64,000 nt of DNA, taken from assembly GCA_903959175.1 (NCBI GenBank), contig CAJBVW010000342.1, positions 23,432 to 87,431 of the forward strand, written 5' to 3'. Positions 37,092 through 38,910 of this stretch are shown piece after piece. The translations under genes and the position numbers were made by a program. The notes under the pieces were generated by a model. That model searched no databases and was not told the origin of the DNA. It saw only the letters and a list, made by a program, of their open reading frames with translations. This stretch comes from an uncultured Pseudomonadota bacterium. Lineage in GTDB: Bacteria; Myxococcota_A; UBA796; SXON01. Each line of letters starts with the position of its first letter. The stretch's first letter is position 1.

Positions 37092-37721
37092 ATGCTCGAA
37101 CAGAAGATGCTGCAGTTCGCCTTGTACGGCGCAGGTTGGGTGTTGTGGCTGCTCGTCAGCCTCTCCGTCCTCGTCGTCGCCGTGGCGCTGGAGCGCGCGC
37201 TCTACGTCATCCTGAACAGCGCCCCGCGCGCCGCGTTCGAGGAGGCCATGGGCGCCTTCCTCGGGGGCGGCTCCCGTGAGGACCTCGAGCGGCGCCTCAC
37301 CGGCATGCGCGGTCTGGAACCCCGCGTCCTGCTCGCTGCCCTGAGCGCGGCCAAGAAGGCGCCCGCCGCCGCCGAGGATGCCCTCGTGGGCACCCTCACC
37401 TTCGAGAAGCTCCGGCTCGAGCGCGGCCTGATCATCGTCGGCACCGTCGCGTCGAACGCGCCCTTCATCGGCCTGTTCGGCACCGTCCTCGGCATCATCA
37501 AGGCCTTCAACGACCTCTCCCTCTCCACCGAGGAGAGCGCGGGCGCGGTCATGGCCGGCATCAGCGAGGCGCTCGTCGCCACCGCGGTCGGCCTCGTCGT
37601 GGCCATCCCCGCCGTCGTGATCTACAACTACTTCAGCCGGCGTATCCGGGAGTCCACAGGCCGTATGGAGAGCATCGGCTCCCTCGTGCTCTCGCGCCTC
37701 CGCTCGGACGAGGCCGCCTGA
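37092..37721 (+). CDS. exbB: MotA/TolQ/ExbB-family proton channel
   Basis: Three TM helices. Signature NAPFIGLFGTVLGIIKAF and ALVATAVGLVVAIPAVVIYNYF. 209 aa. Confidence 0.9.
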   Translation: MLEQKMLQFALYGAGWVLWLLVSLSVLVVAVALERALYVILNSAPRAAFEEAMGAFLGGGSREDLERRLTGMRGLEPRVLLAALSAAKKAPAAAEDALVGTLTFEKLRLERGLIIVGTVASNAPFIGLFGTVLGIIKAFNDLSLSTEESAGAVMAGISEALVATAVGLVVAIPAVVIYNYFSRRIRESTGRMESIGSLVLSRLRSDEAA

Positions 37722-38158
37722 TGGCTGGTAAGCTCGGAGGCGGCGGCGACGAGCCGATGACCGAGATCAACATCGTCCCGCTCGTGGACATCGTGTTGGT
37801 CGTCCTCATCATCTTCATGGTCACCGCGACCTACATGAACCCGCAGGGCATCAAGGTGAACCTCCCCGAGGCGGCGACCGGCGAGAGCATCGAGTCCTCC
37901 TCGCTGGGCATCACCGTCGCGGCGGACGGCGCGCTGTTCCTCGACGGCGCGCCCGTCACCGAGGACGCCCTCCGCGCCGCCGTCCGCGCGGCCAAGGCCG
38001 AGAAGGCCGACGTCGTCTGCCTGATCGCCGGCGACAAGGATGCCCGCCACGGGGACGTGACGCACGTCATCGACCTGGTGAAGCAGGAGGGCATCGCCAA
38101 GTTCGCGATCAACATCGACCCCGCGGCCGAGCCGGCCGTCGCGACCGGCACGCCGTGA
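37721..38158 (+). CDS. exbD: ExbD/TolR-family protein
   Basis: EINIVPLVDIVLVVLIIFMV TM signature and a short periplasmic domain. 145 aa. The start overlaps the exbB stop. Confidence 0.9.
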   Translation: MAGKLGGGGDEPMTEINIVPLVDIVLVVLIIFMVTATYMNPQGIKVNLPEAATGESIESSSLGITVAADGALFLDGAPVTEDALRAAVRAAKAEKADVVCLIAGDKDARHGDVTHVIDLVKQEGIAKFAINIDPAAEPAVATGTP

Positions 38159-38910
38159 GCCTCTCGCCCTACCGCAAGGATCCACGCTGGCAACGCGTGC
38201 TGCGCTCCTCGGCGATCGGGCTCTCCGTCGGCTTCCATGTGGTGCTCGCACTCTTCCTGATCTCGAACCCCGCCGTCGCGAAGAAGGCGTCCCAGTGGGT
38301 CGAGGTCGCGATCAACGAGCCCAAACCGCCGCCTCCTCCGCCGGAGCCCGAGGCGCCGAAGCCCGAGCCGCCGAAGCCGAAGCCGCTCCCGAAGGTCGTG
38401 AAGTTCGAGGACACGACGCCCACCCCTCCGCCGCCGGACGCCGTAGCCCCGCCCCCCGAGCCGACCCGTCGCGTCGTCCGCCAGGTCCAAGGGTTGACCG
38501 CCAACTCCTTCGCGCCCGGCGCCAGCACCGGTCTCAGCGTGCGCGCGGGGAACTCCACCGGCGTGGCCGCAGGAAAGGACACGATGAACCTCGGCGAAGC
38601 CGCCGGCCCCTTCGAGGCGCGGCCCTACACCGCCGTCTCCAAGGCGCCCGCCCTGCGCTGGTGCCCGATGATGGACGTGCCGGACGAGGCGAAGAAGGCC
38701 GGCCTGGACGGTCGGATGGTGAAGGTGCTCCTCGATCTCGACGACAAGGGCAAGGTCACGCGCGTGAAGATCGTCGAGGGCCTCGGCTTTGGCGTAGATG
38801 AGGCGTGCATCGCCGCGTATCGAAAGTCCCAGTGGCGCCCCGCGGAGCAGGATGGCACCCCGGTCGCCGTCATCGGGGTCCCCCAGAACTGCCTCGTCCA
38901 GGAGCAATGA
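38155..38910 (+). CDS. tonB: TonB-family energy transducer
   Basis: N-terminal TM (AIGLSVGFHVVLALFLI), Pro-rich spacer EPKPPPPPPEPEAPKPEPPKPKPLPK, and a C-terminal TonB-C-like fold (GRMVKVLLDLDDKGKVTRVKIVEGLGFG.DEACIAAYRKSQWRPAEQDGTPV). 4-nt overlap with exbD. Confidence 0.85.
   Translation: MSLSPYRKDPRWQRVLRSSAIGLSVGFHVVLALFLISNPAVAKKASQWVEVAINEPKPPPPPPEPEAPKPEPPKPKPLPKVVKFEDTTPTPPPPDAVAPPPEPTRRVVRQVQGLTANSFAPGASTGLSVRAGNSTGVAAGKDTMNLGEAAGPFEARPYTAVSKAPALRWCPMMDVPDEAKKAGLDGRMVKVLLDLDDKGKVTRVKIVEGLGFGVDEACIAAYRKSQWRPAEQDGTPVAVIGVPQNCLVQEQ

Follow-up and report, generated by a model that had tools for sequence, protein, structure and literature searches.

The AglRQS channel of Myxococcus xanthus serves both the Glt and the Nfs machines of that organism. 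In the ancestral Glt core complex the genes aglR, aglQ and aglS were clustered with gltC, gltD, gltE and gltG (Luciano et al. 2011, PMC3169522), and the idea of a motor encoded beside glt genes is already established rather than new. The Agl-type sets in the portion of Table S3 of that paper drawn on here (four Anaeromyxobacter genomes, four in Bdellovibrio, two Geobacter, two in Haliangium, and M1 and M2 of M. xanthus) each have one TolQ-like and two TolR-like genes, and a long distance separates the sets of Anaeromyxobacter, Haliangium and M. xanthus from the glt clusters. Contact between GltG and AglR of M. xanthus is known from a two-hybrid result and a predicted model, with no solved structure. 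M. xanthus also has seven ExbBD clusters, four with tonB and three with a receptor gene; its Ton systems cross-energise, and Oar, a myxobacterial TonB-dependent receptor, is able to export a protein (PMC6434023). We examined an exbB-exbD-tonB trio that lies upstream of a Glt/Nfs-like block in a 64,000-nucleotide stretch of DNA, referred to as the window, from an uncultured bacterium (assembly GCA_903959175.1, contig CAJBVW010000342.1, positions 23,432 to 87,431).

A sequence-only reading of the window had kept a conventional Ton system as its default and had raised the possibility that the channel powers the neighbouring Glt-like machine as well as, or instead of, the adjacent receptor. The default is favoured by the operon structure, by a transducer motif in TonB and by the presence of the same module without Glt genes in other genomes; the proposed powering of the Glt-like machine is opposed by an operon that includes its own receptor gene, a single ExbD, GltG-like proteins without the His motif of TonB, and four of 21 relatives with an intact Glt block and no trio. 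From the five-gene operon, the TonB motif, the one ExbD, the module found elsewhere without Glt genes and the four relatives missing the trio, we consider it probable that this is a conventional Ton system serving the receptor and lipoprotein of its own operon, and that it stands beside the Glt/Nfs-like block by inherited gene order.

What was read directly from the DNA was gene content, domains, motifs, codon overlaps, conservation, and presence or absence in relatives. The window has a base composition of ~72% G+C, and ENA, JGI and Logan have metagenomic contigs that carry identical copies of the region. The genomes of relatives bear the label of uncultured Myxococcota or "Deltaproteobacteria". 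Related loci were collected as two sets of 80 (L numbers). For the ExbB-anchored set, one genome per GTDB species was scanned and the best 80 loci were taken and then searched with the window proteins. For the GltC-anchored set, metagenome contigs were scanned with an alignment headed by the GltC of L066; removal of duplicates, pooling with the genome loci, and a minimum of 8.2 kb upstream of GltC gave 21 non-redundant window-clade loci. The window clade is an uncultured Myxococcota group that occurs mostly in aquatic (lake and sea) metagenomes.

The trio had been described as translationally coupled. The three genes are present where they had been placed, each with its Pfam match (Table 1), and the overlaps are real (TGATG at the exbB/exbD junction, GTGA at exbD/tonB), but the coupling does not end at tonB: it runs on through the receptor gene, whose junction with tonB overlaps (ATGA/TGATG), and through the lipoprotein gene (TGATG at the receptor/lipoprotein junction). 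Since stop and start codons overlap at all four junctions from exbB through the lipoprotein gene, exbB-exbD-tonB-receptor-lipoprotein (37092-42394) is predicted to be a single five-gene operon. The spacing of about 4 kb on the same strand was accurate (4.0 kb, from the end of tonB at 38910 to the start of the first Glt-like gene at 42920). A 525-bp gap (42394-42920) separates the Ton operon from the first Glt-like gene and holds an open reading frame (ORF) of 141 amino acids (aa) on the minus strand, which is kept in L005, L007, L009, L105, L108 and L131 and absent in L004, L006 and L013. Nothing in the sequence pointed to a shared Ton-glt transcript; simple promoter and terminator scans from the Ton operon to GltA were uninformative.

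Motor genes were counted with profile hidden Markov models (HMM) run on all ORFs of the window and of 10 kb beyond its 3' end, and with precomputed Pfam gene tables for 10 kb past either end (contig k141_566965), so that ~84 kb of contig was covered. The HMM scan gave one ExbB-family and one ExbD-family ORF, the latter in agreement with the single ExbD-type gene counted earlier in the window, and the Pfam tables showed no further ExbB/ExbD-family gene within 10 kb of either window end. When the pair was scored against NCBIfam, exbB gave 110 bits with the tolQ model and 92 bits with the exbB model (exbB cutoff 206), both under cutoff, and ExbD gave 60–76 bits with ExbD models against cutoffs of 123–216; the tolQ and tolR models fall short too, and the equivalog cutoffs for exbB and exbD are stringent. 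In the PDB comparison ExbB was equidistant from E. coli ExbB (65.5 bits) and TolQ (64.6 bits), whereas ExbD was nearer to E. coli ExbD (58 bits) than to TolR (46 bits). The PDB matches of ExbB were ExbB and TolQ relatives only, and its AlphaFold2 (AF2) model is all-helical with a predicted local distance difference test (pLDDT) value of 85. By sequence of the pair alone, assignment to a Tol-type or a Ton-type channel is ambiguous.

The locus as a whole resembles the E. coli Ton system (PDB 5SV0, 6TYI) in having genes of the same three families in an identical order, the Asp of the ExbD membrane helix (within VPLVDIVLVV), the S-x3-H-x6-L motif of TonB, a proline-rich TonB spacer (PPPPPPEPEAPKPEPPKPKP), a TonB_C domain, and a plug-containing receptor as presumed client. 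It differs in that the window proteins score ~58–65 bits to the E. coli ones, ExbB is 209 aa rather than 244 aa, and tonB and the receptor gene share one overlapping operon in which no Fur box was found.

The membrane helix of the window TonB reads S24-x3-H28-x6-L35, which is the same spacing as in E. coli TonB (S16/H20/L27) and TolA (S18/H22/L29) taken from the MG1655 record. Orthologous TonB proteins from non-redundant relatives had the full S-x3-H-x6-L in 9 of 14 cases and the His in 12 of 14. According to an evolutionary study, a conserved His of the transducer helix is where the motor is contacted in structures of ExbBD-TonB and TolQRA (PMC12204202). The motif was absent from both GltG-like helices of the window and from 14 orthologous GltG helices, and the two window helices contain no histidine; as far as helix sequence can tell, it argues, short of proof, against the GltG-like proteins docking directly on the channel.

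Four TonB_C-type domains had been counted within about 17 kb, and this count was confirmed: the TonB C-terminus, the receptor N-terminus and two GltG-like tails fall within 17.5 kb (38155-55659). The TonB C-terminal domain (38635-38910) and the receptor N-terminal domain (38997-39300) share 35% identity (E 3e-11). The two GltG-like tails, which belong to the AgmX/PglI tail family, are 74% identical to one another; BLAST found no similarity between the TonB/receptor pair and the GltG-tail pair. By these comparisons the four domains appear to be two unrelated pairs, and the TonB_C enrichment would then arise from two separate systems lying side by side.

The receptor has a Plug domain (Pfam 1.8e-8) and a CarboxypepD_reg domain, the type that defines the Oar subclass; its N-terminus matches the NCBIfam model of the myxochelin receptor MxcH, and a candidate TonB box, QAGVIGVYKK, was spotted by eye only. 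A TonB_C-type domain heads this receptor, ahead of the Oar-type CarboxypepD_reg domain. The lipoprotein encoded after it has 382 homologues and an AF2 model of tandem Ig-like sandwiches (pLDDT 87); a fold search of the PDB returned generic Ig-like matches only, with TM-scores of 0.2–0.3, which supports no functional call. Receptor-bearing Ton clusters of M. xanthus, namely Ton-Oar/MXAN_1450, MXAN_0272-0276 and MXAN_0820-0821 (Gomez-Santos et al. 2019, PMC6434023), likewise combine exbB, exbD and tonB with a receptor gene and an Oar-type CarboxypepD_reg N-terminal extension. Ton-Oar has two exbD genes and the window one (PMC6434023); the window receptor adds a TonB_C-like domain and is followed by the gene for an Ig-like lipoprotein.

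In the ExbB-anchored relatives a single ExbD was present in all but 3 of the 80 loci. Twenty-eight loci had ExbBD together with a full-length homologue of the window receptor, and 13 of these also had a lipoprotein homologue, including those of Nannocystis (L073) and Archangium (L024) and several from metagenome-assembled genomes. Glt genes lay nearby in just 7 of the 80; six of these seven are all of the close relatives (ExbB identity at least 55%) with enough flank, and the remaining one is L066, a distant relative. L020, the closest outgroup when ExbB was placed in a neighbour-joining tree, had all five genes (receptor 49% and lipoprotein 40% identical) with other neighbours on both flanks. 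Because the module is found in other Myxococcota without Glt genes, and in L020 within new flanks, the five-gene module appears to be the unit that is conserved and that moves. The nearest Myxococcus/Citreicoccus ExbB homologues among the best 80 loci (44–46% identity) lie in exbB-exbD-tonB loci (L017, L019, L021), in line with the M. xanthus ExbBD clusters (PMC6434023); L019 and L021 have the order exbB-exbD-tonB-receptor, with a full-length receptor homologue of 33–34% identity, and L017 has no receptor gene.

The form of AglRQS was not encountered in these loci. One ExbD was present in the window and its flanks and in every Glt-bearing related locus, and no set of one TolQ plus two TolR genes adjoining glt genes was found among the best 80 ExbB-anchored loci. 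Nor does the window have the AglRQS trait of a TonB/TolA-free motor operon with GltG as partner: the genes exbD and tonB overlap, as do tonB and the receptor gene. Two loci without an adjacent ExbD (L015 and L041) were considered as possible AglR loci and rejected, being orphan TolQ-like genes followed by other genes. These orphan TolQ/ExbB-like genes (L015, 10001-10636; L041, 10001-10681) are 43–46% identical to the window ExbB and have no ExbD-type gene beside them; one of the two is in an Anaeromyxobacteraceae metagenome-assembled genome, beside an aminotransferase gene, and a motor without an ExbD/TolR partner is unusual. A tblastn search with GltG against plasmids gave no matches.

Seventeen of the 21 window-clade loci carried the full five-gene module beside the Glt block. 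Three of the other four (L125, L143, L146) form one subclade of the GltC tree and have the order GT genes, DUF2817 gene, receptor, lipoprotein, GltA, with no trace of exbB, exbD or tonB at the position and the DUF2817 gene instead. In the fourth, L100, the distance from GT2 to GltA is 1.3 kb and none of the five Ton-operon genes lies there; GltA to GltH are present. The Glt blocks of all four are intact as far as the contigs extend, making four relatives of the 21 in which Glt is intact and the trio missing from this position. The pattern suggests that the trio was lost from this position at least twice independently while the Glt block stayed. Such repeated loss would not be expected for a dedicated motor encoded with its machine, although the trio may have moved elsewhere in those genomes. 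The receptor neighbours the Glt block in 20 of 21 relatives, more persistently than does exbB-exbD-tonB, and in L110 and L120 the receptor gene abuts GltA and the lipoprotein gene is absent. Co-conservation of motor and Glt block, which the sequence-only reading had proposed to check, was therefore found only in part: adjacency holds in 17 of 21 loci and in L066, but the trio is missing from four, and the module occurs elsewhere without Glt. The adjacency is nevertheless kept in most relatives, so that the absence of linkage, which the sequence-only reading had named as evidence against the motor idea, was not observed, though the linkage stands inside a general block synteny.

The extent of that synteny was seen upstream of exbB. 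Genes for PBP1A, a GT4 glycosyltransferase and a GT2 glycosyltransferase, which lie on the minus strand further upstream in the window, directly precede exbB in the same order in L005, L009, L010, L011, L013 and L066. Since the loci that keep the adjacency keep these genes too, it belongs to a wider synteny: the stretch from PBP1A to glt is one conserved block, and the linkage of Ton to glt is no stronger than that of Ton to unrelated cell-wall genes. In some of these loci the alpha-2-macroglobulin/PBP1C pair found upstream in the window is missing while the Ton-glt adjacency is kept; a reading of this as specific linkage was rejected, for PBP1A-GT4-GT2, further upstream, is conserved too.

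In the mechanism we propose for this conventional Ton system, an ExbB pentamer would surround an ExbD dimer, whose membrane Asp would take up protons, the stoichiometry being taken by analogy from solved ExbB5-ExbD2-TonB complexes. The TonB membrane helix would dock on ExbB through S-x3-H-x6-L, its proline-rich arm would cross the periplasm, and its C-terminal domain would pull the plug of the receptor encoded next door, a predicted contact. The receptor and the Ig-like lipoprotein would carry a substrate through the outer membrane, with a direction and a substrate that are likewise presumed. The position beside the Glt genes would come from inherited gene order and would need no energetic coupling.

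Several observations weigh against this interpretation. ExbB and ExbD are under all NCBIfam equivalog cutoffs, with tolQ/tolR slightly above the exbB/exbD models; the receptor barrel domain was not recognised by Pfam, though the Plug was; and no Fur box was found, the best match having 7/19 mismatches. No second MotA/TolQ-family gene lies in the ~84 kb of contig, and no AglRQS-type set was found within 10 kb of GltC in the 80 GltC-anchored loci, nor in the Glt-bearing genome loci. The ancestral Glt core kept its motor beside gltC/D/E/G (PMC3169522), and 17 of 21 close relatives retain the Ton-Glt adjacency, as does the deeply diverged L066, whose ExbB and GltC are 45% and 31% identical to those of the window. 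Finally, cross-energisation of Ton systems is documented in M. xanthus (PMC6434023), and the channel may be promiscuous.

The last of these points leads to the alternative that survives best, which we nevertheless regard as unlikely: that ExbB-ExbD drives TonB and the receptor and, in addition, one or both GltG-like transducers, as AglRQS serves Glt and Nfs in M. xanthus. The locus is like AglRQS in pairing a MotA/TolQ/ExbB-family channel with an ExbD/TolR-family partner and in having a TonB_C-tailed GltG-like transducer encoded nearby, and it is like the AglRQS homologues of Bdellovibrio, Geobacter and Gammaproteobacteria in placing a motor beside glt-type genes (PMC3169522). Such sharing would fit an adjacency that 17 of 21 relatives and the L066 lineage have kept, the sole motor seen in ~84 kb, the motor beside glt as the ancestral arrangement (PMC3169522) and the cross-energisation of M. 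xanthus Ton systems (PMC6434023). The locus differs from AglRQS in having one TolR-type gene where the Agl-type motors catalogued in the cited part of Table S3 have two, in having its own TonB and receptor in the operon, in GltG-like helices without the TonB His motif, and in the absence of an adjacent window-type motor from four of 21 relatives with intact Glt; each of these speaks against a shared motor, as do an operon that stops before the Glt block and a synteny that reaches unrelated upstream genes as well.

Somewhat less probable still is a link made through the receptor and lipoprotein, which on the analogy of Oar would form an outer-membrane export or anchoring accessory of the Glt-like machine, with the Ton trio feeding the receptor. 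The persistence of the receptor next to GltA (20 of 21 relatives, with direct abutment in L110 and L120), its Oar-type CarboxypepD_reg extension joined to a TonB C-terminal-like domain, and the precedent of Oar as a TonB-dependent receptor that exports protein (PMC6434023) are what one would expect of such a link. General block synteny accounts for the adjacency, however; L100 has an intact Glt block without receptor or lipoprotein, in many lineages homologues of the receptor accompany ExbBD where there are no Glt genes, and the Glt/Nfs machines of M. xanthus have no known receptor.

It is very improbable that ExbB-ExbD is a dedicated Glt motor descended from the ancestral core-complex motor and acting mainly through the GltG-like proteins, with TonB and the receptor added later. 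The Glt block downstream of the pair does lack a second motor in its vicinity, the HMM scores of the pair lean slightly toward TolQ/TolR, and some AglR homologues listed in Table S3 are of similar length (e.g., 211 aa in Geobacter; PMC3169522). But Nannocystis, Archangium and many metagenome-assembled genomes have the module and no Glt genes with it, the codons of exbD, tonB and the receptor gene overlap, the HMM scan found no second TolR-like gene, exbB-exbD was lost in relatives with intact Glt blocks, and ExbD is nearer to E. coli ExbD than to TolR. The idea that the trio is a Tol-Pal motor (TolQ-TolR-TolA) mislabelled as Ton can practically be dismissed: the tolQ/tolR models score highest in NCBIfam, the first two proteins are of the same family and the helix motif is common to TolA and TonB, but Pfam/NCBIfam gave no matches to the TolB, Pal or CpoB families among the neighbouring genes, a TonB_C domain and a proline-rich spacer mark the third protein, whose gene precedes that of a TonB-dependent receptor, and ExbD is nearer to that of E. 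coli.

Table 1. Features of the window considered in the text, with positions counted from its first nucleotide.
Feature	Position	Strand	Description
alpha-2-macroglobulin	28663-34272	+	upstream neighbour
PBP1C	ends 36485	+	upstream neighbour
tRNA-Cys (GCA)	36521-36595	+	ARAGORN; between the alpha-2-macroglobulin/PBP1C pair and the Ton operon
small ORF	36774-37067	+	97 aa; also gene-called on identical contigs
exbB	37092-37721	+	209 aa, MotA/TolQ/ExbB-family proton-channel subunit; Pfam MotA_ExbB E 4.5e-34
exbD	37721-38158	+	145 aa, ExbD/TolR-family subunit; Pfam ExbD E 3.9e-30
tonB	38155-38910	+	251 aa, N-terminal membrane helix, proline-rich spacer, C-terminal TonB_C E 1.4e-10
TonB-dependent receptor	38907-41540	+	877 aa; signal peptide, TonB_C-like N-terminal domain, CarboxypepD_reg, Plug, divergent barrel
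lipoprotein	41540-42394	+	284 aa, LLAC lipobox, tandem Ig-like beta-sandwiches; last operon gene
opposite-strand ORF	42385-42810	-	141 aa, signal peptide; also gene-called on identical contigs
Glt/Nfs-like block	42920-56497	+	NCBIfam + Pfam; outside the Ton operon

The Glt/Nfs-like locus that had been noticed next door is real, and by NCBIfam and Pfam the block is complete. It holds two GltA/B-type outer-membrane barrels (TIGR04565), GltC-like, GltE-like, CglF/GltF-like and CglE/GltH-like genes, two GltG-like genes, and in the GltD position a 1070-aa TPR protein, which is called GltD-like by TPR content and position only. The equivalog-model matches of the block are under cutoff, the CglE/GltH one excepted. 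The second GltG-like gene (54100-55659) has no N-terminal FHA domain and matched nothing at full length in L100 or L110; possible readings of it are a GltJ-like partner and a recent duplicate.

Downstream of the block, the L3 and CoA-transferase genes lie between two genes for choice-of-anchor D/HYDIN-like Ig-domain proteins (56528-57667 and 59766-61988). The first of these two is conserved after GltH in many relatives, and its protein could be a surface component tied to the Glt-like machine. The L3 gene, rplC, encodes ribosomal protein L3 with an N-terminal extension and stands alone just downstream of the Glt-like block (57701-58504), placed after the choice-of-anchor D protein gene; it has the same position in L110, L111, L132, L156, L159, L163 and L164.

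On the other side, the 97-aa ORF stops 24 bp before exbB, is conserved at that spot in L004, L005, L009 and L012, and had no Pfam or family match; it may be the first, uncharacterised gene of the Ton operon. The alpha-2-macroglobulin/PBP1C pair (28663-36485) is present in the window, L004 and L012 and absent from the same position in L005, L009, L013 and L066; it looks like an insertion between GT2 and the Ton operon, beside tRNA-Cys, in a subset of genomes.

Taken together, a functional tie between the Ton module and the Glt/Nfs-like machine, whether through ExbB-ExbD driving the GltG-like proteins or through the Oar-like receptor and lipoprotein as an accessory, seems unlikely to us. If it were true, Ton-type components would serve a Glt-type apparatus together with AglRQS or in its stead. 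Had the motor idea held, this would have been the first Glt/Nfs-type machine run by a Ton-type channel with a single ExbD, and a compact locus in which to follow the coupling of a motor to GltG-like transducers. The locus carries a caution for the family, in that the presence of TolQ/ExbB-family genes near glt-like clusters in metagenomic Myxococcota does not amount to a motor assignment. The relatives of the window also form a natural series, in which all five genes, just those for the receptor and lipoprotein, or none of them are present, and this series is a useful by-product for asking whether the Ton genes have any bearing on the Glt-like block.

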